Assembly: GCA_964016885.1 (NCBI GenBank)
Contig: OZ024749.1
Span: 6,076,001 to 6,140,000 of the forward strand
DNA: 64,000 bases
Source of the DNA: Eledone cirrhosa
Taxonomy: Eukaryota
Reading direction: 5' to 3'
Under the pieces are notes generated by a model, which ran no database searches, was not told the origin of the DNA, and was given only the letters and a program-made list of their open reading frames with translations. Position 1 is the first letter of the stretch. Each line of letters opens with the position of its first letter. Made by a program: the position numbers and the translations under genes. Shown piece by piece: positions 22,377 to 60,199 of this stretch.

Positions 22377-23136
22377 TCTCTCTCTCTCTCTCATGTCTCT
22401 CTCTCACAGTCTACTGTCTCTCTACTCTCTCATCTCTCTCTCACACTGTCTACTGTCTCTCTACTCTCTCTCTCTCTCTCACTGTCTACTGTCTCTCTAC
22501 TCTCTCATGTCTCTCTCACACTGTCTACTGTCTCTCTACTCTCTCTCTCTCTCACTGTCTCTCTACTCTCTCTCATGTCTCTCTCACACTCTACTGTCTC
22601 TACTCTCTCTCTCTCACTGTCTCTCTACTCTCTCTCTCTCTCTCATGTCTCTCTCTCACTGTCTACTGTCTCTCTCATGTCTCTCTCTCACTGTCTACTG
22701 TCTCTCTCTCACTGTCTACTGTCTCTCTCTCTCATGTCTCTCTCTCACTGTCTACTGTCTCTCTCACACTGTCTCTCTACTCTCTCTCTCACACAATGTC
22801 TACTCTCTCTCTACTCTCTCTCTCTCATGTCTCTCTCTCACTGTCTACTGTCTCTCTATTCTCTCTCCCTCACACTGTCTACTGTCTCTCTCTCTCATGT
22901 CTCTCACACTGTCTACTCTCTCTCTCATGTCTCTCACACACTGTCTACTCTCTCTCTACTCTCTCTCTCTACTCTCTCTCTCTCATGTCTCTCTCACACT
23001 GTCTACTCTCTCTCTACTCTCTCTCTCTCATGTCTCTCTCTCACTGTCTACTGTCTCTCTACTCTCTCATGTCTCTCTCACACTGTCTACTGTCTCTCTA
23101 CTCTCTCTCTCTCATGTCTCACACTATCACCCTCTT

Positions 23137-23169
<33 letters not shown>

Positions 23170-26028
23170 GTCTCACACTATCACCCTCTTTATTCTCTCT
23201 CTCTCTCTCTATCTCTCATGTCTCACACTATCACCCTCTTTATTCTCTCTCTCTCTCTCTATCTCTCATGTCTCACACTATCACCCTCTTTAGTATCTCT
23301 CTCTCTCTCATGTCTCACACTATCACCCTCTTTATTATCTCTCTCTCTCTCATGTCTGACACTATCACCCTCTTTATTCTCTCTCTCTCATGTCTCACAC
23401 TACCACCCTCTTTATTCTCTCTCTCTCTCTCTCTCATGTCTCACACTATCACCCTCTTTATTATCTCTCTCTCTCTCATGTCTGACACTATCACCCTCTT
23501 TATTCTCTCTCTCTCATGTCTCACACTATCACCCTCTTTATTCTCCTCTCTCTCTCTCTCATGTCTCACACTATCACCCTCTTTATTCTCTCTCTCTCTC
23601 TCTCTCATGTCTCACACTATCACCCTCTTTATTCTCTCTCTCTCTCTCTCATGTCTCACACTATCACCCTCTTTATTCTCTCTCTCTCTCTCATGTCTCA
23701 CACTATCACCCTCTTTATTCTCTCTCTCTCTCTCATGTCTCACACTATCACCCTCTTTATTCTCTCTCTCTCTCTCTCATGTCTCACACTATTACCCTCT
23801 TTATTCTCTCTCTCTCTCTCTCTCATGTCTCACACTATCACCATCTTTATTCTCTCTCTCTCTCTCTCTCTCATGTCTCACACTATCACCATCTTTATTC
23901 TCTCTCTCTCTCTCATGTCTCACACTATCACCCTCTTTTTTCTCTCTCTCTCTCTCATGTCTCACACTATCACCTCTTTTTTCTCTCTCTCTCTCTCATG
24001 TCTCACACTATCACCCTCTTTTTTCTCTCTCTCTCTCTCATGTCTCACACTATCACCCTCTTTTTTCTCTCTCTCTCTCTCTCTCTCTCATGTCTCAGAC
24101 TATCACCATCTTTATTCTCTCTCTCTCTCTCATGTCTCACACTATCACCCTCTTTTTTCTCTCTCTCTCTCTCATGTCTCACACTATCACCCTCTTTATT
24201 CTCTCTCTCTCTCTCTCATGTCTCACACTATTACCCTCTTTATTCTCTCTCTCTCTCTCTCTCATTTCTCACACTATCACCATCTTTATTCGCTCTCTCT
24301 CTCTCTCTCTCATGTCTCACACTATCACCATCTTATTCTCTCTCTCTCTCTCATGTCTCACACTATCACCCTCTTTTTTCTCTCTCTCTCTCTCATGTCT
24401 CACACTATCACCCTCTTTATTCTCTCTCTCTCTCTCTCATGTCTCACACTATTACCCTCTTTATCTCTCTCTCTCTCTCTCTCATGTCTCACACTATCAC
24501 CATCTTTATTCTCTCTCTCTCTCTCTCGTCTCACACTATCACCCTCTTTATTCTCTCTCTCTCTCTCATGTCTCACACTATCACCCTCTTTATTCTCTCT
24601 CTCTCTCATGTCTCACACTATCACCATCTTTATTCTCTCTCTCTCTCTCTCTCTCATGTCTCACACTATCACCCTCTTTATTCTCTCTCTCATGTCTCAC
24701 ACTATCACACCTCTTATTCTCTCTCTCTCTCATGTCTCACACTATCACCATCTTTATTCTCTCTCTCTCTCTCTCTCATGTCTCACACTATCACCCTCTT
24801 TATTCTCTCTCTCATGTCTCACACTATCACCCTCTTTATTCTCTCTCACTCTCTCATGTCTCACACTATCACCCTCTTTATTCTCACTCTCTCTCTCTCT
24901 CTCTCATGTCTCACACTATCACACCTCTTTATTCTCTCTCTCTCATGTCTCACACTATCACCCTCTTTTTTCTCTCTCTCTCTCTCATGTCTCACACTAT
25001 CACCCTCTTTATTCTCTCTCTCTCTCATGTCTCACACTATCACCCTCTTTATTCTCTCTCACTCTCTCTCATGTCTCACACTATCACCCTCTTTATTCTC
25101 TCTCTCTCTCATGTCTCACACTATCACCCTCTTTATTCTCTCTCACTCTCATGTCTCACACTATCACCCTCTTTATTCTCTCTCTCTCTCATGTCTCACA
25201 CTATCACCCTCTTTATTCTCTCTCACTCTCTCTCATGTCTCACACTATCACCCTCTTTATTCTCTCTCTCTCTCATGTCTCACACTATCACCCTCTTTAT
25301 TCTCTCTCTCTCTCATGTCTCACACTATCACCCTCTTTTCTCTCTCTCTCTCTCTCTCATGTCTCACACTATCACCCTCTTTATTCTCTCTCTCTCTCAT
25401 GTCTCACACTATCACCCTCTTTATTCTCTCTCTCTCACTCTCATGTCTCACACTATCACCCTCTTTATTCTCTCTCTCTCTCATGTCTCACACTATCACC
25501 CTCTTTATTCTCTCTCTCTCTCATGTCTCACACTATCACCCTCTTTATTCTCTCTCACTCTCATGTCTCACACTATCACCCTCTTTATTCTCTCTCACTC
25601 TCATGTCTCACACTATCACCCTCTTTATTCTCTCTCTCTCTCATGTCTCACACTATCACCCTCTTTATTCTCTCTCTCTCTCTCATGTCTCACACTATCA
25701 CCCTCTTTTTTCTCTCTCTCTCTCTCTCATGTCTCACACTATCACCCTCTTTATTCTCTCTCTCTCTCATGTCTCACACTATCACCCTCTTTATTCTCTC
25801 TCTCTCTCTCTCTCATGTCTCACACTATCACCCTCTTTATTCTCTCTTCACTCTCATGTCTCACACTATCACCCTCTTTATTCTCTCTCTCTCTCATGTC
25901 TCACACTATCACCCTCTTTATTCTCTCTCTCATGTCTCACACTATCACCCTCTTTATTCTCTCTCTCTCTCATGTCTCACACTATCACCCTCTTTATCTC
26001 TCTCTTCATTTCACACTATCACCCTCTT

Positions 26029-26069
<41 letters not shown>

Positions 26070-26243
26070 GTCTCACACTATCACCCTCTTTATTTTCTCT
26101 CTCTCTCTCATGTCTCACACTATCACCCTCTTTATTCTCTCTCTCTCTCTCTCTCTCTCATGTCTCACACTATCACCCTCTTTATTCTCTCTCTCTCTCT
26201 CTCATGTCTCTCTCTCTCTCATGTCTCACACTATCACCCTCTT

Positions 26244-26280
<37 letters not shown>

Positions 26281-26299
26281 CTCACACTATCACCCTCTT

Positions 26300-26336
<37 letters not shown>

Positions 26337-27517
26337 GTCTCACACTATCACCCTCTTTATTCTCACTCTCTCTCTCTCTCTCTCATGTCTCACACTATCA
26401 CCCTCTTTATTCTCTCTCTCTCATGTCTCACACTATCACCCTCTTTTTTCTCTCTCTCTCTCTCATGTCTCACACTATCACCCTCTTTATTCTCTCTCTC
26501 TCTCATGTCTCACACTATCACCCTCTTTATTCTCTCTCACTCTCTCTCATGTCTCACACTATCACCCTCTTTATTCTCTCTCTCTCTCATGTCTCACACT
26601 ATCACCCTCTTTATTCTCTCTCACTCTCATGTCTCACACTATCACCCTCTTTATTCTCTCTCACTCTCATGTCTCACACTATCACCCTCTTTATTCTCTC
26701 TCTCTCTCATGTCTCACACTATCACCCTCTTTATTCTCTCTCACTCTCTCTCATGTCTCACACTATCACCCTCTTTATTCTCTCTCTCTCTCATGTCTCA
26801 CACTATCACCCTCTTTATTCTCTCTCTCTCTCATGTCTCACACTATCACCCTCTTTTCTCTCTCTCTCTCTCTCTCATGTCTCACACTATCACCCTCTTT
26901 ATTCTCTCTCTCTCTCATGTCTCACACTATCACCCTCTTTATTCTCTCTCTCTCACTCTCATGTCTCACACTATCACCCTCTTTATTCTCTCTCTCTCTC
27001 ATGTCTCACACTATCACCCTCTTTATTCTCTCTCTCTCTCATGTCTCACACTATCACCCTCTTTATTCTCTCTCACTCTCATGTCTCACACTATCACCCT
27101 CTTTATTCTCTCTCACTCTCATGTCTCACACTATCACCCTCTTTATTCTCTCTCTCTCTCATGTCTCACACTATCACCCTCTTTATTCTCTCTCTCTCTC
27201 TCATGTCTCACACTATCACCCTCTTTTTTCTCTCTCTCTCTCTCTCTCTCATGTCTCACACTATCACCCTCTTTATTCTCTCTCTCTCTCATGTCTCACA
27301 CTATCACCCTCTTTATTCTCTCTCTCTCTCTCTCTCTCATGTCTCACACTATCACCCTCTTTATTCTCTCTCACTCTCATGTCTCACACTATCACCCTCT
27401 TTATTCTCTCTCTCTCTCATGTCTCACACTATCACCCTCTTTATTCTCTCTCTCATGTCTCACACTATCACCCTCTTTATTCTCTCTCTCTCTCATTTTT
27501 CACACTATCACCCTCTT

Positions 27518-27558
<41 letters not shown>

Positions 27559-27678
27559 GTCTCACACTATCACCCTCTTTATTTTCTCTCTCTCTCTCAT
27601 GTCTCACACTATCACCCTCTTTATTCTCTCTCTCTCTCATGTCTCACACTATCACCCTCTTTATTCTCTCTCTCTCTC
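22377..27678. repeat. 5.3-kb CT-rich satellite (about 40-bp unit catgtctcacactatcaccctctttatt(ct)n from about 23113)
   Basis: Direct reading; explains the 1394-1783 aa S/L/H ORFs. Confidence 0.97.
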
Positions 27679-30000: not shown

Positions 30001-30428
30001 ATAAATCAAGAAAGAAGAGTGACACGGTTTGCTATACAAAAACGGTTTTTAATCACATTGCTGACAATTGTTTCTCTGAACAATTCATCAGAGCTAGCTC
30101 TGATGAATTGACTGGTTACAACTACGTATTGGTGAACGAATGACGCAAAAGCAGGCAAGTAGCCATCTCTAGACCTACCAGTTCAGAGAAACAATTGTCA
30201 GCAATGTGATTAAAAACCTTTTTTGTATAGCAAACTGTGTCACTTTTCTTTCTTGATTTATCATTTCTCCAAGTGTTAACAACAGAAATCACCGCGTACT
30301 CGCAGCATCACTATGGAAACGCCTTGTTGAGTCAAACTTAGCCAAGCATTGATATCATTCACTACTCGGAGTACCCTAACTGCACTACACATAAGTGGAC
30401 TACCTATAGCAATAATTTGTTATCCCGT
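30001..30428. mobile_element. Fold-back hammerhead element, family H (IR 30001-30261, tail to about 30428)
   Basis: Perfect apex aattcatcagagctagctctgatgaatt; hammerheads on both strands; (TA)n flanks. Confidence 0.85.
30097..30202 (+). ncRNA. Hammerhead ribozyme with long stem-loop II
   Basis: gct-CTGATGA-attgactggt..(about 60 nt)..accagttcaga-GAAA-caattg-TC-agc; GUC triplet. Confidence 0.7.
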
Positions 30429-30858
30429 ATATATATATACAAGTCTGTAGGAACAAGACATGGTTGTCTGACCTGGCTAGTCTGATAACATGACAATTAA
30501 TCCATGCAAGCATAAGAGATTGCTATTTCAGCAGTGACAATGGCTGAATGAATACGCACGAGTGTTTATTCTACCCCATTTTTTTTTCCACTTTTTCCCC
30601 CTTTCCTTCCTCTCATTACTCTTTACTTTCTATTTATTTTCTATTTCTAACTATATTTATCTTCTTTTTCTAACTATATTCCACCCTTGCAAGCAGGGAA
30701 GAGTGGACGTAAAACGATGATGAATGAACTTCTGATGAAGGACTAGTATCCAAATGTTAAGACTCTCCTGCTGCTATTCCAAACTTTAAACTTACATGTA
30801 CTGTGCCATCTTTCTGTTATTTCTGTTTACTTTTTATATATATATATATATATATGCA

Positions 30859-31009
30859 CCATATTTCCCGGCATCGAAGATGCTACTTTTTTCCTAAAAT
30901 AAGTCTCAAAAATCTACCATGCGTCCTGGAGGCCAAAGGTTGTTTATTATTTTTTTTCAAATTGTGGGTGTCCTTGAGGACGAAGCTTCTTCGGTGCCAG
31001 GAAATACGG
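30859..31009. mobile_element. Tc1/mariner/pogo-type MITE
   Basis: TIRs ccatatttcccggcatcgaaga / tcttcggtgccaggaaatacgg in TA context. Confidence 0.75.
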
Positions 31010-31013
31010 TATA

Positions 31014-31081
<68 letters not shown>

Positions 31082-31085
<4 letters not shown>

Positions 31086-31477
31086 CGTTTCTGAATTTGT
31101 TTAACAAGATTCTTTATCTGAAATCGTGTGTTGAAACCGATATTGTTATACTTTGGGAGGGTCATGTTGCCAATAAGAAACACACGCACCAGTTGCTTTC
31201 ACTTCAATTTATTATATATTTATAAATTTATAAATTTACAAATTTACAAAGTTATAAATTTCTGGTTGGTTGGTTGGTTCCACAACCAGATAGTTGTTTA
31301 TATATAGTCATAGTCCTTTCATCACACACTCTGTGACCTCTTCAGTGACTGGGGATTCCTTTCTTCGTTTCTGTGCCTTTCCTTTCTTCTATCCTACGCC
31401 ATATAATAAATTGAAGTGAAAGCAATGGTGCGTGTGTTTCTTATTGGCAACATGACCCTCCCAAAGTATAACAATAT
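31082..31477. mobile_element. Fold-back pLTR element, family I (tail 31082-31139; arms about 31140-31216 and 31402-31477)
   Basis: Inverted arms; hammerhead in loop; copies at 44350-44620 and 59972-60199. Confidence 0.85.
31306..31350 (-). ncRNA. Minimal hammerhead motif (family I)
   Basis: agtca-CTGAAGA-g gtcac agagtgt gtgat-GAAA-ggac-TA-tgact; 5-bp stem I. Confidence 0.7.
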
Positions 31478-31491
31478 ATAAATATATATAT

Positions 31492-33180
31492 ATATTGTTA
31501 TATTTGTGGAGGGTCATATTGTTGTAATATTATTGCCAGAAATAATAACAGAACACACTCACTCTTTTTGTATTCTATCTTTGTTTATTAGTGTGTGTTT
31601 ATATGTGTTTGTTGTTATTGTACTTGTGTATATATTTATTTATTTATATTTCTCTTAAGTCAGTATTGTTTGTTTGGGTGTTGTTATTCCATTCATTTTT
31701 TCTGTTTTGCTTGCTTCTCTGATTTGCCTACCTGTTAGGTCATTTCTATGTTTAGATATCATTTTAATTTCTATGTTGTCTATATTACCGTCATGTCTTT
31801 GTCTGGCGTGTTCGTATAGTACTGAACCGTTTTTTGTCCTTTTAGTTCCCCCTAGTGTTGGTCTACCCTTTCTCCTATGCTTCGAGCTGTCTCACCTATG
31901 TATGTTGTTGTCATGTTTCTGCAGGTACTCTCTGTACATCTTATGCTATAGACTACATTTCTAGTTTTATAGTTTGTCTGGGGGTTTACTTTACATATAA
32001 CACATTTCTCATTAGTACAGTGGGTTTTCTTAAAGGGGTATATTTTGTTGATCAGGGATTTTATGGTAGTTCCTGGATTTTCTACCACTTTAATCTTTAA
32101 GTGTGTCTTTCTTAGGGCCTTTCTACATTGGTTAGCTAATTTCCCTCCAGGGGTAGCATCCACGAACATGACACTCTGGTATCTCTGGTTGTCATACCAT
32201 GAGGTGGCTTTCCCTATCTTATGTCTAGCCCTATCTAAGCTATTCCATGATTTGCTCCTGTATAATGGGCAAATTCCTTTCATGTTCGGTTTTATGACGT
32301 TTTTATAATTCTCCGTGGCTCCTTCGAATACTCTGACTCTGTCTCTTTGGTTGTAGCCAGAGAACTGCATGTGGTTGATGAAGTGTTGGATGTGTCTTTC
32401 CCTTTCTGTTGGGTAGCACATGCGGGACACATTCTTCATCACTCGTAACAGGTCTGCGATCACAATATTAAACTTAGCACTACTGGACATTGCTGAGTTT
32501 TTGAGTATCAGGTATTTGGAGGCCTTGGGTTTAGCATAGTGTGAGTGGAGAATTTGGGCCATCTCATCTATAGTGTTAATCCAGAGTTCCGTGTCTAATA
32601 CAGGTACTCTATGGTTAGGGTGTTTGGAAGGGTAGTCGATAGTTACAGTTATACTCTGGTGTATGGAATTAGCTATCTGTTGGATGCTTTCCATTGTGCT
32701 ACATTCTAAATCATACTTGTTAGTACTCTCTTGTGGGGGTGTTCTTATTACTATATTAATGTCGTCTACGTAATGAGAGTACCTGATGAGGTCTATGGAG
32801 CTCTCTTCAAGGAGATCTTTGAGTCTCCTTTCCCACCATACCATAAATAGATTGGCATCATCACCAGCTATGCTGACGCCAATGGCTGCTCCCTCATTTT
32901 GTAGATCTTTTCACTGAATTTGAATATATGGCCCTTTAGGGTAGTTTTAATACTAGCCCCTATTGCTAGTTGGTAAGTAAGTGATAAACATTGATGGCCA
33001 AATGAATTAACTATGGAGATATAAAAGATACAGAAGCGAAACCCAACCAGACAGTGAGTGTGTTCTGTTATTATTTCTGGCAATACTTTTACAATAATAT
33101 GACCCTGCCCAAATATAACAATATTTGTTTTGACACACAATTTCATATCAAAATCCTCACAAAACAAATTCATCGCCGTT
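31492..33180 (-). mobile_element. Penelope-like retroelement, 5'-truncated, with inverted terminal repeats (31492-31563 and 33053-33123) and tail to 33180
   Basis: RT + GIY-YIG remnant between inverted termini; (TA)n on both sides. Confidence 0.9.
31670..32972 (-). pseudogene. PLE reverse transcriptase (C-terminal half) + GIY-YIG endonuclease, frameshifted with in-frame stop
   Basis: GAAIGVSIAG..ANLFM, YSHYVDD, PVLD, C..C.IC linker, NVVYSIRC..C...YIGET.R; homology continues past the stop at 31852 (SVLYEH..H, RQIREA). Confidence 0.9.
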
Positions 33181-33627
33181 ATATATATATATATATATAT
33201 AGTAGAAGTAGTAGTAGTAAAATTAAATGCAAATACCAAAATACAGATAGAACTCAATAAGAGTGGTATGTATATGTATATATATATATATATATATATA
33301 CACCTGTAGAACAAATATTTATTATTAGCACAGGTTAGAAGCTTAAGCACACAATTTCTGCTTTCACCCTTGTACAGGATCAAAATGTTTTTACTTAAAT
33401 ATTTAATCTGTGCTAATATTTATATTTATATATATATAAACGAGTAAACAAGGAAAAAAGCAGAATAGGAGAATGATGATATATATTAGTTTGAAAATTA
33501 ATATAGTATGAAATGGGGCGTAACATTCGAATTGGCTTTGCTCATCCACACATGTCTGTCTACTAACCTTGAAATTATAAAGACCAACCAGATGTGAGAA
33601 AAACCACAGACCCTCCATCTCAACTCA

Positions 33628-33665
33628 CCTTTTGAAAAGCAGAAGAACTGCGAAACCGGTAAAGG
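33628..33665 (+). ncRNA. Minimal hammerhead with U3-A8 covariant core (family J)
   Basis: cctt-TTGAAAA-gcag aagaa ctgc-GAAA-ccgg-TA-aagg then AATAAA; downstream sequence repeated at 12772-12837. Confidence 0.7.
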
Positions 33666-34214
33666 AACCAAATAAATATATATATTTTAAAAAAAATAAG
33701 ACTTCAGTTGCATTTTCGATTTCATCCCTTTTTCTTTATATATATATATATATACAAACATATATATATATAAATATGTAAGGTCACCAGTTGGTGCGAC
33801 TGGTAACATGTATTCCAGTACAACCTATGTCATGGTCAGGTCATTGGCGACTAAACTGGCAACCCCACCAAGGTTTCTTGGTGAGGAGGGTGACTTTGGA
33901 CATCCTGCAGGACTAAAAACAAAACCTGAGTTCTTCCGATGATTTGATTAGGCATACATTGTATTTAAAATTGAGTGACACAACTTCATGTGATTAGCAA
34001 TTTTTAGACACCCTAATCAATGAAACAATTGTTAACACTGTAAATAAAACCATTTTTGTACTGTTGACCATGTTATTCTTCACTCTTTCACTATATATAT
34101 ATATATATATACATAATAGTAGAACACTAGAGGGTTATATATGTAGTAGTAGAGCACTCAGTCCACAGGGTGAGTTTGATAGAAGTAGTTCCGCAACAGT
34201 TAGTTCACCATTAC

Positions 34215-35750: not shown

Positions 35751-38700
35751 CACCACCCACCCCATCATCTGTGTACACTAAACACAACAGCATTTTCACC
35801 TTCACCGCCACCGCTCACTACGGCCATCATTACCACCACTATCCCATCACCGCCGCCACCACCCCTTGACTCCTTCACTGCTGCTGCCACCGCTACAGCA
35901 CCATCACTACAGTAATACGGTCGCATCACCGCCACCACTGCCTCGGTATCGACATCACCACCACCACTGTCTCAGTATCGCCAACGCCGCCAGTCTCCCA
36001 CTTCTCCCTGCTGGCTGCTACTTCCACATTATAGAATTCCTACTACTAACAAAGAGGAAGGCATCAAAATATATAGATAGACTCAAAAGAAAAAAGAAAA
36101 AACAAACAACAAAACCAAAGCAGCACAGCAACAACAGCAAAAAACGAGAAAAACAAACAGAGAAAAACAAAAACAAAAAAAGAAACCCCTAAAACGTAAA
36201 GAAAATAAGAATGAAGAGAGAAGCAGGCGGACGGACAGAGAAGAGGGGGGAAAAAGTAAAACTTAAAAAACAAAAACTAAGTCAGACATGCGAATACTAC
36301 ATTACAATGAAACTTATGCTTATTCATTTTTGGGGCCCTTTCTGCCCGTGTGTTTGTTTGTTTATGTGTGTTCGTATACAGCGTGGTGATAATGCCACAC
36401 AAGGGCCAAGTGGGATGGCGGATCCACAGATGGCTATGTAAACATACATTCGCCAATCCTCGATAAGAGTGTTTAAATATCGAACATAAACAGTTCGAAT
36501 AACGGTGAAATGGAGACTAGAACGTCATGTGACAGACTCTCACCCAACAGGTGCCCCCTGGCTCAGCAGCAGGAACCTGACTGTCAACCAAATACTGCTG
36601 ATGTTGGAGGAAGAAGAAGAAGGAAAGGGGCCAGAACCAACTGGACGAAAGAATTGAATAGAACTGTTATGCAATGCTACCTGAAAAGTAACCCCAAGGA
36701 GAGGGGCTACAGGAGACGGATGCATAACATCTGGAACGAGATTGGTTTATTTAAATTAGATGAACAAAAATTGGCCGGGCAGGCTCGGGTAATAAGAACT
36801 AATGGGTGGATAAGCGAGCTGGAACTGGAGGAACTGAGCAGAGAGAATGGCTTGGAGATGGCGGGTGTAGTATGCCAGACAAGCGAGCCGGCGGGAAATG
36901 AAGGTGAGGAGGTCCTGAGAACGGAGGAACCACCCGAAGCAGACAATGATCTGAATACTGAGATAAATAATACCTGGAACAGAGATACGGCCACTGAGGA
37001 GATGAATGCTGACGGGCTAGGACAAGATTCGGTTGACATCCTAAATTTAGTGGTAGATGAGTTGAACAATGATAGTGGGAGACCTATGAACCTAAGATTT
37101 GTAGACAGGAAAAAGTTAAAAGAAACAACAGCTAAGGTAAACAAAGTCATCCCATACCTTGAGGCGAGGAGTCTTCACCAGTGCAACAATATCCTCAAAG
37201 CAACAGCAAATACGGTGAGGAAACTACTTGGTATAAAAGCGAGAGGAAACAACAGACAAGAAAGAGCAGAGCCATGGTGGAAGAAGCGACTGAGTGGGCA
37301 AATCGGGGAAATGAGAAATGACATAGGAAAGCTTGAGTCACTACTGAATGGGACACTAAAAAACATAGGCACTAAAAATAGACTGGAAATAAAATACAAA
37401 ACTAGGAGTAAAAAGCTAAATATTATCATAGAGGAATTGAAGCAACGCATTGTAGCAAAGAGTGCCAAAATCAGGCGATACGAGAACAGAGTCAGTCAGT
37501 ATAAACAGAACCGCATGTTCGACAACAACCAGAAGATGCTGTTTGGACAGCTTGAGGGGAAAGAAAGAGGCAACGACTTGATCCCTGGGGCGGAACAAGC
37601 TAAAACATTCTGGAGAGGAATATGGGAGCAGGATGTTAGACACAATGCCCAGGCAGGGTGGATTGAGACAGTACAGAGGGAGATCGGTGAGCAGGCACAA
37701 CAACAGACTGATTTGAGTATCACAGTTGAAACTCTTAAGGGGCAAGCCAAAAAACTAACCAACTGGAAATCACCAGGCCCAGATGGTGTGCAGGGGTATT
37801 GGATTAAACATTTAACATCCCTCCACCCGAAGCTGACGGCCATGTTCAATGACTGCTTGGTGTCGGGTGAGGTGCCAGAGTGGTTGACAAAAGGTACCAC
37901 AGTTCTGATAATGAAAGACCGAATCAAGGGTAATGATGTTACCAACTATAGACCTATCACATGTCTGCCCGTAATGTGGAAACTGTTGACGAGCATTGTG
38001 TCTGAGGAAATCTACCATCACCTCCACACAAACAACTTGTTACCGGACGAACAGAAAGGATGCCGAAAGAAGTCACGTGATACAAAGGACCAGTTGCTTA
38101 TTGATAAGATGGTAATGGGGAATTGCAGGAGGAGACACACTGATCTTGCCATGGGATGGATAGACTACAGAAAGGCATTTGACATGGTGCCTCATTCCTG
38201 GATCACCAAAAGCCTGGAGATCTTCAGGGTGGCAGATAACATCAGACAGTTGCTGGGCAGGAGTATGGGGTCCTGGGAGACAGAGTTGACATCAACTGGA
38301 GTATCCTTGGGAAGCGTGAAGATCAAGAGAGGTATCTTCCAGGGAGATAGCCTGTCCCCTCTGTTGTTTGTCCTTGCCCTGATGCCCTTGACCATTATGC
38401 TGCGAAAAGTGAGAGCAGGATACAAGTTGGGAAGGGGAGAGCTTACCATCAATCACCTCCTCTTCATGGACGATCTTAAGCTCTTCGGGAAAAGTGAGAA
38501 GGAGTTGGATGTGCTTGTTGACACTGTCCGTATTTTCAGCAGTGATATATGTATGCAGTTTGGTATTGGTAAATGTGGAGTCATTGTGATGAAGAGGGGT
38601 AGGTTGAGCAGAAGTAACGGGATCCAGATACCAACAGGTGAGATGATAAAGGAAATTGACTCTGAGGAAGGATACAAGTATTTGGGCATTCTGGAGGCTG

Positions 38701-39991
38701 ATGGCATAAAGAACAAAAAAATGAGGGAATTGTTAAGAACTGAATACATTCGGAGAGTAAGGAGCGTATTGAAGTCACATCTGAACAGCAGAAATGCCAT
38801 AAGCGCAGTAAATTCCCGAGCTGTGTCTATTATTAGGTACAGTGCGGGAATTCTGAGATGGAATGTTGCTGAACAAAAAGAAATGGATAGGAAGACTAGG
38901 AAGCTATTGACTATCTACAACATGTTCCACAAGAGGAGTGATGTCGATAGACTCTACCTAAGGAGATCTGAGGGTGGAAGAGGTCTTATCAGCATAGAGG
39001 ACTGTGTTCAGATGGAGAAAAACAACCTATACAAATACGTGACCTATAGTAAGGAGCCAATGCTCAGAACTGTACTGAAGGAGGGGACAGTAGGCCAGGG
39101 GATGTCCAAGGAGGAAATAACATCAAGGAGGAAGAGCAGCCTTAAGGGAAAATCCCTTCATAGTACCTTCTTTGAGAAAACTGAATTTAGAGATCCACAG
39201 ACATGGAACTGGTTGAGAAGAGGAGACCTCAAAAAGGCTACAGAAGGAATGCTAATGGCTGCGCAGGAGCAGGCCCTCAAAACGAAGTGGTTGAAGCACC
39301 ATATCTACAAGGAGGAGGCTAGCCCACTGTGCAGGATCTGTGGAGAGAGAGAGGAGACTGTGGCTCACATTGTGTCCGAGTGTAAACACCTAGCCCAGAC
39401 CCACTATAAGGGCTGGAGACACGATGTGATGGGCAGGGTGATCCACTGGCACCTGTGCAAAGTAAACAATCTACCACATTCTGAGAAATGGTATGAGCAT
39501 AGGCCAGAGGCGGTGATGGAGAACAGTCAGGTGAAGGTGCTGTGGTATTTTAGGATACAGACGGACAAAAAACTGGAACACAATAGACCTGACCTGGTGG
39601 TTGTGGACAAAGAAAAAAGATCGTGCCTGATTGTGGATGTGGCCTGCCCGTTCGACACGAGAGTGCAAGAGAAGGAGAGGGAGAAAATTAACCGATACCA
39701 GGACCTAAAGTGGGAGGTGAAAAGGATTTGGAACTGCCATGAAGTCAAAGTGATCCCGATTGTCATAGGCGCACTGGGGACTATCTCCAAAGGTTTCCAG
39801 GGATGGTTAAAGAAAATCGGCCCCTTCACGCTTTTTGGAACGCTTCAAAAGGCTTGCTTGCTTGGAACAGCAAGAACCCTCCGATACGTCCTGAATATCT
39901 GAGGCTGCAGGTAGTGGCTTGATATTCAATCCAACGGACTTTCCAGTTAACCAACATCAATGACTGAGATTCAAGGAATAAAAATAATAAT
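35751..39991 (+). mobile_element. R4/Dong-clade non-LTR retrotransposon, apparently full length; 5' boundary uncertain
   Basis: Single long ORF; (TAA)n tract at 35692-35750 upstream and aataaaaataataat at the 3' end. Confidence 0.8.
36510..39902 (+). CDS. Reverse transcriptase + CCHC + restriction-like endonuclease (1130 aa)
   Basis: KSPGPDG, YRPITCL, IDYRKAFD, GIFQGDSLSP, HLLFMDD, YKYLG, CRICG..ETVAHIVSEC, RHD, RPD..D..K..RY motifs; no stops. Confidence 0.97.
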   Translation: METRTSCDRLSPNRCPLAQQQEPDCQPNTADVGGRRRRKGARTNWTKELNRTVMQCYLKSNPKERGYRRRMHNIWNEIGLFKLDEQKLAGQARVIRTNGWISELELEELSRENGLEMAGVVCQTSEPAGNEGEEVLRTEEPPEADNDLNTEINNTWNRDTATEEMNADGLGQDSVDILNLVVDELNNDSGRPMNLRFVDRKKLKETTAKVNKVIPYLEARSLHQCNNILKATANTVRKLLGIKARGNNRQERAEPWWKKRLSGQIGEMRNDIGKLESLLNGTLKNIGTKNRLEIKYKTRSKKLNIIIEELKQRIVAKSAKIRRYENRVSQYKQNRMFDNNQKMLFGQLEGKERGNDLIPGAEQAKTFWRGIWEQDVRHNAQAGWIETVQREIGEQAQQQTDLSITVETLKGQAKKLTNWKSPGPDGVQGYWIKHLTSLHPKLTAMFNDCLVSGEVPEWLTKGTTVLIMKDRIKGNDVTNYRPITCLPVMWKLLTSIVSEEIYHHLHTNNLLPDEQKGCRKKSRDTKDQLLIDKMVMGNCRRRHTDLAMGWIDYRKAFDMVPHSWITKSLEIFRVADNIRQLLGRSMGSWETELTSTGVSLGSVKIKRGIFQGDSLSPLLFVLALMPLTIMLRKVRAGYKLGRGELTINHLLFMDDLKLFGKSEKELDVLVDTVRIFSSDICMQFGIGKCGVIVMKRGRLSRSNGIQIPTGEMIKEIDSEEGYKYLGILEADGIKNKKMRELLRTEYIRRVRSVLKSHLNSRNAISAVNSRAVSIIRYSAGILRWNVAEQKEMDRKTRKLLTIYNMFHKRSDVDRLYLRRSEGGRGLISIEDCVQMEKNNLYKYVTYSKEPMLRTVLKEGTVGQGMSKEEITSRRKSSLKGKSLHSTFFEKTEFRDPQTWNWLRRGDLKKATEGMLMAAQEQALKTKWLKHHIYKEEASPLCRICGEREETVAHIVSECKHLAQTHYKGWRHDVMGRVIHWHLCKVNNLPHSEKWYEHRPEAVMENSQVKVLWYFRIQTDKKLEHNRPDLVVVDKEKRSCLIVDVACPFDTRVQEKEREKINRYQDLKWEVKRIWNCHEVKVIPIVIGALGTISKGFQGWLKKIGPFTLFGTLQKACLLGTARTLRYVLNI

Positions 39992-44349: not shown

Positions 44350-44620
44350 TACAAAAACACAAAACAAGACACACAAAAACAAGATGGCGTAGGACAGAAC
44401 AAAGGAGAGGCACAGAACAAAGAAAAGAATCCTCAGTCACTGAAGAGGTCACAGAATGTGTGACGGAAGAACTTTGACAATATATGAACAACCGTCCGGT
44501 TGTGGAACCAACCAACCAATCGGAAATTTATAAATTTTTTAATTTATAATAAACTGGAGTGAAAGCAACTGGTGCGCGTGTTTCTTATTGGCAACATGAC
44601 CCTCCCAAAGTATAACAATA
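44350..44620 (+). mobile_element. Solo pLTR of family I with degenerate hammerhead (44436-44488)
   Basis: gtca-CTGAAGA-ggtcac..gtgac-GGAA-gaac-TT-tgac; (TA)n flanks. Confidence 0.8.
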
Positions 44621-44623
44621 TAT

Positions 44624-59971: not shown

Positions 59972-59975
<4 letters not shown>

Positions 59976-60191
59976 TTTATGAATTTGTTTAGCAGGATTC
60001 TTTATCTGAAAACGTGTGTTGAAACCGATATTGTTCTACTTTGGGAGGGTCATGTTGCCAATAAGAAACACACGCACCAGTTGCTTTCACTTCAATTTAT
60101 TATAATAAATTTATAAATTTATTATAATAAATTGAAGTGAAAGCAACTGGTGCGTGTGTTTCTTATTGGCAACATGACCCTCCCAAAGTAG

Positions 60192-60199
<8 letters not shown>
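59972..60199. mobile_element. Fold-back element, family I: perfect 172-bp palindrome 60028-60199 plus tail
   Basis: Apex between 60113 and 60114; (TA)n flanks. Confidence 0.9.

Follow-up and report, generated by a model that had tools for sequence, protein, structure and literature searches.

PLE remnants in (TA)n tracts of Eledone cirrhosa end at two recurrent positions within the start of their ORF

Main

Priming in PLEs has been described for Poseidon of Anolis carolinensis (PAc), where, in the portion of PMC11167929 drawn on here, two internal RT start sites define a tail, the protein nicks both strands of the target and extends from each, and it is predicted to act as a dimer. The one element assayed there showed no primer–template homology, and Figs S1–S2 of that paper bear on junction homology. 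Published descriptions of other PLEs already include an ORF that begins within the pLTR and a tail on one side (parts of PMC3846280 and PMC11167929). The sections of PMC8557442 considered here give the microsatellite bias and the inverted structures of these elements as unexplained. Minimal hammerheads and their U3–A8 core are described in the consulted part of PMC4209133, and pLTR-derived non-autonomous copies are treated in bioRxiv 10.64898/2026.07.22.740005, of which we likewise draw on a part. For O. vulgaris, 30 recently active Penelope families are given in PMC13282606, in the available part of which pLTRs are not mentioned.

Here, we describe copies of a PLE family in a 64,000-nt stretch of the Eledone cirrhosa genome (GCA_964016885.1, contig OZ024749.1, 6,076,001–6,140,000; hereafter ‘the window’, with positions counted from its first letter). 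An initial annotation of this DNA had placed the start of a PLE ORF inside the pLTR and had ascribed both ends of the insertion to annealing of internal TA-like motifs to a nicked microsatellite.

Results

The window is AT-rich and microsatellite-dense. Comparison of sequences within it resolved span 31082–33182 into two adjacent insertions rather than one, A1 (31083–31477) and B (31492–33179), with the peptides and end types lying where they had been described. A1 is a pLTR copy of non-coding size with an inverted arm. It comprises a 5′-truncated pLTR plus tail of subfamily A without RT (31083–31400, minus strand; 80.6% to the solo copy at 44384–44621) and an inverted short arm (31401–31477, plus strand; ATG at 31452, short end at +26). 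Its long, tailed end meets a (TA)n tract at 31010–31082, and a short imperfect (TA)n tract at 31478–31491 is common to the short ends of A1 and B.

Copy B begins with a 3′ pLTR arm on the ORF strand (31492–31563, minus; ATG at 31517, short end at +26), followed by a 5′-truncated PLE ORF (31694–32969, minus) that family profiles matched in three frames (best 2e-141). This ORF holds the RT from just before motif B′, the thumb, a CX4CX2C linker and a GIY-YIG-type endonuclease, and is broken by two frameshifts, near 32900 and 31850. An inverted 5′ arm (33053–33124) and its tail (33125–33179), together 33053–33179 on the plus strand, carry an ATG at 33099 and 27 codons, and the long end adjoins a (TA)n tract at 33180–33201. 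The arms of B (31492–31563 and 33053–33124) are 93% identical, whereas those of A1 (31140–31217 and 31401–31477) are 98.7% identical; from this difference, A1 probably entered later, into the TA tract beside B.

Two further copies belong to subfamily A. A2 (44352–44621, plus strand) is a solo pLTR that has the short end only and (TA)n on both sides. A3 (59974–60199) is palindromic, with the long end on the left and the short end on the right, and its arms meet at a 14-nt self-complementary AT-rich motif (60107–60120). The inversion point of A1 has a 2-nt match only, and by eye no palindrome was evident at the inversion points of A1 or B. The direct or inverted pLTRs and the 5′ truncation of the window copies are as in C-terminal EN+ PLEs.

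The arms were also considered as the terminal inverted repeats of a MITE, but their coding content, their asymmetry and their association with an RT led us to reject this. We likewise discarded an interpretation as microRNAs, the Rfam matches in the window being TA-hairpin artefacts below the gathering score. Separately, a MITE-like element of 153 nt with 27-nt imperfect terminal inverted repeats lies between TA tracts at 30858–31010, just left of A1.

Both peptides of the initial annotation were read at their places: the minus-strand ATG at 31165 encodes MTLPKYNNIGFNTRFQIKNLVKQIQKR (subfamily A) and the plus-strand ATG at 33099 encodes MTLPKYNNICFDTQFHIKILTKQIHRR(Y) (subfamily B). In A1, the first 27 codons of the ORF occupy 31085–31165 (minus), with codons 10–27 (~55 nt) forming the tail. 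Across this region the subfamilies are identical at 59/81 nt and 19/27 residues, and of their differences 4 fall at first, 4 at second and 14 at third codon positions, giving 9 synonymous and 8 non-synonymous codons; upstream of the ATG, ungapped identity is only 12/45. The third-position bias and the drop in identity upstream of the ATG are the pattern expected for coding sequence.

By BLAST, the best match of the B peptide among 30 RT relatives was weak (P0028, residues 6–26, E 0.3). A first N-terminal profile, made from the N-terminal domains of three relatives and the two window peptides, retrieved 89 proteins, many of which begin M.LP[KR]..[SN][YF].TR and none of which starts with the window peptide. 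On residues 36–190 alone, 80 of the 89 were still significant, 31 of these extending to the N-terminus. As inclusion of the window peptides had biased this profile, it was rebuilt without them from relatives’ N-termini at three stringency cut-offs, from the 12 best to 31 more diverse sequences, with 2000 shuffles per test. At each cut-off, the 31165 peptide then outranked all others of the 3176 window segments. With the profile of the 12 best N-termini it scored 21.3 bits, and the 33099 peptide came fourth in the window with 12.1 bits. Scored shuffles reached the A score in 0/1901, 0/1940 and 1/1950 cases at the three cut-offs and the B score in 0/1881, 2/1888 and 140/1909, such that with the 31 more diverse N-termini the A peptide was marginal and the B peptide not distinguishable from shuffles.

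One relative, P0031, joins this N-terminus, the RT and the endonuclease in a single chain of 1047 aa that is 42% identical to the window ORF. Protein, metagenome and viral contig searches found no copy of the window family with peptide and RT joined; a word search for the peptide in proteins of 71–2000 aa yielded 37 candidates, none of which scored, and a DNA pattern of the ORF start had 0 matches in metagenome and viral contigs. Because no joined copy was found, continuity with the RT is by homology, on which basis the window peptide is the N-terminus of a PLE protein. Full-length relatives with RT and GIY-YIG start alike, which supports the earlier proposal that the ORF starts inside the pLTR and that the tail encodes its N-terminus.

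Seven arms carry the ATG, of which four end at +26 and three run to codon 27. All four short ends stop at AACAATAT, positions +23 to +26, in both subfamilies, and all three long ends stop at the Arg-27 codon (about +81), within ~2 nt of each other. These positions hold across two subfamilies at 73% nucleotide identity. Every outer end (8/8) adjoins (TA)n, in 7 separate tracts, the background for such a run being 5.4% of window positions. Each of the three inverted copies has one short and one long end, and in all three an optional one-sided tail of ~55 nt extends the ORF start, compared with 30–40 nt reported. The location of the tail needed correction: A1 carries it on its long pLTR, which is the direct one, and B on its inverted 5′ arm, and the longer cDNA may carry either end. 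These end statistics rest on four copies in the window, which may share their ends by descent.

Beyond the window, most of 26 metagenome loci were too short or decayed, and two show an apparent end inside the ORF start, each on a single contig. L006 runs into (TA)n at codon 7–8 (by eye, not by profile match); L004 breaks off near codon 23, where it borders a non-TA repeat. Three ORF-start regions folded no better than their shuffles (z = 0.74, −0.87 and 0.70), so no RNA structure was found marking the end sites in these regions.

The short end has a real 4-nt overlap with the target repeat, ATAT at +23 to +26, in both A and B. This constitutes one homologous site, and such junctions occur at 10/82 (A) and 19/82 (B) of the ORF-part positions, a 12–23% chance. 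An alternating-AT run of equal or greater length at +15/+16 (TATA or ATATA), intact in A1, A2 and B and mutated in A3, was used by none of the four short ends; nor were the ATAT at +47 in B or the 6–7-nt runs upstream ever used as ends. In all, the pLTR plus tail contains 5 (A) or 11 (B) runs of 4 nt or more, and all four short ends use the same one. The claim that TA annealing rather than fixed termini sets the ends is not supported as an either/or, since the short (4/4) and long (3/3) ends are fixed and equal or better runs 7 nt away are unused.

The TAT microhomology postulated for the long end is not readable in the window, as no copy continues past that point. A TA-starting codon just after it is plausible from sequence comparison, given that 8 of 16 relatives have Tyr or Phe at the corresponding codon; a simple TAT overlap would, however, leave unexplained the additional A at the long end of A1. 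Base pairing may aid priming at the fixed sites without selecting them, and it is plausible, though unproven, that short TA matches help the element to attach to TA repeats.

The best named protein match of the window ORF was Octopus vulgaris CAI9736119.1 (P0001; 62%). A Pfam search assigned the window ORF to no family and found a weak RVT_1 match in only one of five relatives, a PDB sequence search gave a single weak RT match, and an RT profile found no relatives among 19 viral and 24 prokaryote-genome candidates. The predicted structure of relative P0027 (pLDDT 88.7) had telomerases as its top seven Foldseek matches and, in VIA, as its first 14 rows (rank 1: Z 15.0, rmsd 4.7, 318 aligned). 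As judged from this model and the profile match of the window ORF (2e-141), the RT is telomerase-related, as in C-terminal EN+ PLEs. The window ORF has a YxIxC...C...YIGET motif and, after a frameshift, two His residues, making it by motif a C-terminal GIY-YIG with CCHH.

Among 29 relatives scored, YxGE[TS] was present in 24 (the other five being truncated or variant), TDKS(G/S) in 24 (the other five start downstream), and the CX3-5CX2C linker, shared with the window ORF, in 25 (three truncated, one matched elsewhere). ESM Atlas neighbours, a lead only, carry PF01541 in 16–38% of members. The features of the Hydra clade did not match, with TDKS(G/S) in place of DKT and a CX4CX2C rather than CxCX5C linker; nor did those of the Naiad/Chlamys group, which has an N-terminal endonuclease and a CxC motif, the endonuclease being C-terminal here. 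In a separate observation, L007:1-6055 is a full-length relative in partial tandem, whose ORF of >1630 aa has two long low-complexity repeat inserts that recall the N-rich inserts of rotifer Penelopes.

In all 29 relatives that have both motifs, 129–134 aa separate RT motifs A and B′, an insert of ~70 aa over one Penelope and one Nematis row (about 61–63 aa, counted by eye); in Nematis, no insert lies between A and B′. As its truncation point lies just downstream of this region, the window copy itself does not contain the insert, which we assign to the window element through P0001. Among relatives P0001–P0055 it carries conserved CPxR, GRxPT and RW..W motifs. Modelled alone (pLDDT 92), it gave no Foldseek match at E 0.001; its best VIA row was to an unrelated protein (Z 5.4, rmsd 5.7, 59 aligned), and no telomerase was among the top 50. 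Its position is that of the telomerase IFD (insertion in fingers), and the insert and the TERT IFD are similar in size. In literature searched without most subscription papers or Repbase, we found neither an A–B′ insert described for C-terminal-EN PLEs nor TA microhomology proposed at PLE 3′ ends. The insert-bearing relatives are possibly an unnamed clade, and Arkhipova 2006 or Evgen’ev and Arkhipova 2005 may already describe such a lineage.

A minimal type-I hammerhead-like motif (31306–31350, minus; core at 31345, 6-bp stem II, 5-bp stem I) lies 180 nt upstream of the A1 ATG. The motif scan gave two matches in the window, against a mean of 0.06 and a maximum of 1 in 50 Markov controls. In A1, loop III is not palindromic; in A2 the core is changed (by eye), none was found in B, and Rfam returned no hammerhead match in the window. 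Elsewhere, a clean minimal hammerhead-like motif with a U3–A8 core and palindromic loop III occupies 33632–33662 (plus), within a single-copy remnant (~33440–33670) that ends in a TA tract. Three relatives have a hammerhead-like motif with a UUGAAA-type core just after the ORF stop: L003:1239 (by scan), and L006 (~2495–2550) and L009 (~2425–2455), both by eye.

The window holds other repeats. A second PLE-like family at 30001–30428 has 81-nt inverted arms, a 30-nt palindrome at 30081–30110, separated hammerhead core halves, a one-sided extension of ~167 nt and both ends in (TA)n; a 75% relative lies near 34022 (34022–34090). An unbroken frame of 1141 aa at 36477–39902 (plus; RVT_1 E 1e-22, weak zf-RVT match) is what we take to be an intact non-LTR retrotransposon with a restriction-like C-end, and a 5.3-kb TC-rich array at 22377–27678 has a 40-nt unit and extreme strand skew.

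Discussion

As first stated, the finding at this locus is a rediscovery of published PLE anatomy, with its annealing half overstated. We propose, with a probability of a little under 60%, that these copies are remnants of an EN-bearing PLE that targets (TA)n and is primed at two fixed internal sites, probably helped by brief TA pairing. A transcript from a partial tandem would continue into the start of the following ORF, on the pattern of the Anolis PLE, and the GIY-YIG domain would nick (TA)n on both strands, as in the part of PMC11167929 considered. Each nicked 3′ end would then prime reverse transcription at one or other of two positions that the protein’s grip on the ORF-start RNA holds fixed, and the tail would be the interval between them. 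Since the two arms are copies of a single RNA region, this would take two templates or two passes, in keeping with a dimer, and the two cDNAs would be linked head to head through a short match or a palindrome. Pairing of 2–4 nt between the nicked TA end and AU-rich letters probably helps priming and shifts the register by a few bases.

Two fixed internal starts could also operate with no base pairing. On this view, the TA overlap would have arisen by chance, the coding sequence being AT-rich, and the preference for (TA)n would be due solely to the endonuclease with its zinc-finger linker. A start site reported to lack homology with the cut DNA (PMC11167929), chance odds of 10/82 to 19/82 for the short-end overlap, the end of L004 against a non-TA repeat and the link between microsatellite bias and linker drawn in the sections of PMC8557442 considered all speak for this. 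Against it, both subfamilies retain the overlap, the end of L006 likewise falls in AT-rich codons and almost at that position, and the long ends vary by 1–2 nt between copies, and we regard the absence of pairing as possible, if somewhat unlikely. That the nicked (TA)n would anneal to any internal TA-like motif, with no fixed termini, as the initial annotation held, agrees with the ATAT overlap at all four short ends and with the (TA)n beside every outer end, but is very unlikely given that equal or longer runs (+15/+16, +47 in B, and those of 6–7 nt upstream) went unused and that a single one of the 5 (A) or 11 (B) available runs served all four short ends.

Ends and arms might instead form after or outside priming, by EN-mediated resolution, to which PMC8557442 (in part) ascribes the tail, or by self-priming at palindromic junctions as proposed in the part of PMC3846280 considered, with later microsatellite slippage blurring the junctions. 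A3 is indeed joined at a palindrome, but the 2-nt match at the A1 inversion point, the lack of a palindrome evident by eye in A1 or B, and later in vitro mapping that puts RT starts exactly at tail boundaries (PMC11167929, in part) make such an origin most improbable.

The finding nevertheless predicts exactly where priming should start in a family that targets (TA)n (+26 and about +81), and hence offers a direct test of the open priming question. Should this family prove to use pairing, two modes of priming would exist among PLEs, and the A–B′ insert would become a candidate link to telomerase-like primer handling. A broader and rather doubtful proposition is that of an unnamed marine-animal lineage of C-terminal-EN PLEs in which a folded insert of ~70 aa at the IFD position goes with telomerase-style pairing at two fixed sites, unlike Poseidon. 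For annotation, short palindromic copies of this kind can pass for MITEs or microRNA hairpins.

The following comparisons draw on the available parts of the papers cited. Hydra and Naiad PLEs both occur in octopus and share with the window element a (TA)n preference and a tail at either end (PMC8557442). Hydra differs in having DKT, CxCX5C and neither CCHH nor the insert, and Naiads have an N-terminal endonuclease without a canonical hammerhead (PMC8557442) and an insert of ~20 aa between RT motifs A and B, compared with ~70 aa here. By eye, the Nematis clade (rows in Figs S2 and S7 of PMC8557442) shares the short CX4-5CX2C linker, the C-terminal GIY-YIG with CCHH and a similar pre-linker motif. 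The RT motifs differ between the two (LYGLRKDHK, PTRPVC and FMVWWD), and the A–B′ spacing is 129–134 aa in relatives of the window element as against ~61–63 aa, by eye, in one Penelope and one Nematis row.

In Pen2a_Av and related Penelope families of Adineta vaga, the first 12 aa are encoded in the pLTR, and with the tail this stretch reaches 22 (PMC3846280); the tail is likewise optional at one inverted pLTR, and palindromes occur at inverted junctions. Their tail measures 31 bp, compared with ~55 nt here (9 and 27 codons), and their target duplications are clear, whereas none is readable in (TA)n in the window. Poseidon lacks the zinc-finger linker and the A–B′ insert of the window element’s relatives. 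PAc starts lie ~111–118 nt or more into the ORF rather than at +26 and about +81, its hammerhead overlaps the ATG whereas the hammerhead-like motif of A1 is 180 nt upstream, and its start site is reported as non-homologous to the target (PMC11167929), whereas the short end here overlaps by 4 nt. The two nevertheless have in common AT-rich targets and an RT followed by GIY-YIG, the pLTR has a hammerhead in PAc and a candidate one in A1, and in both the ORF starts inside the pLTR, copies end at two in-ORF sites and the tail lies between them.
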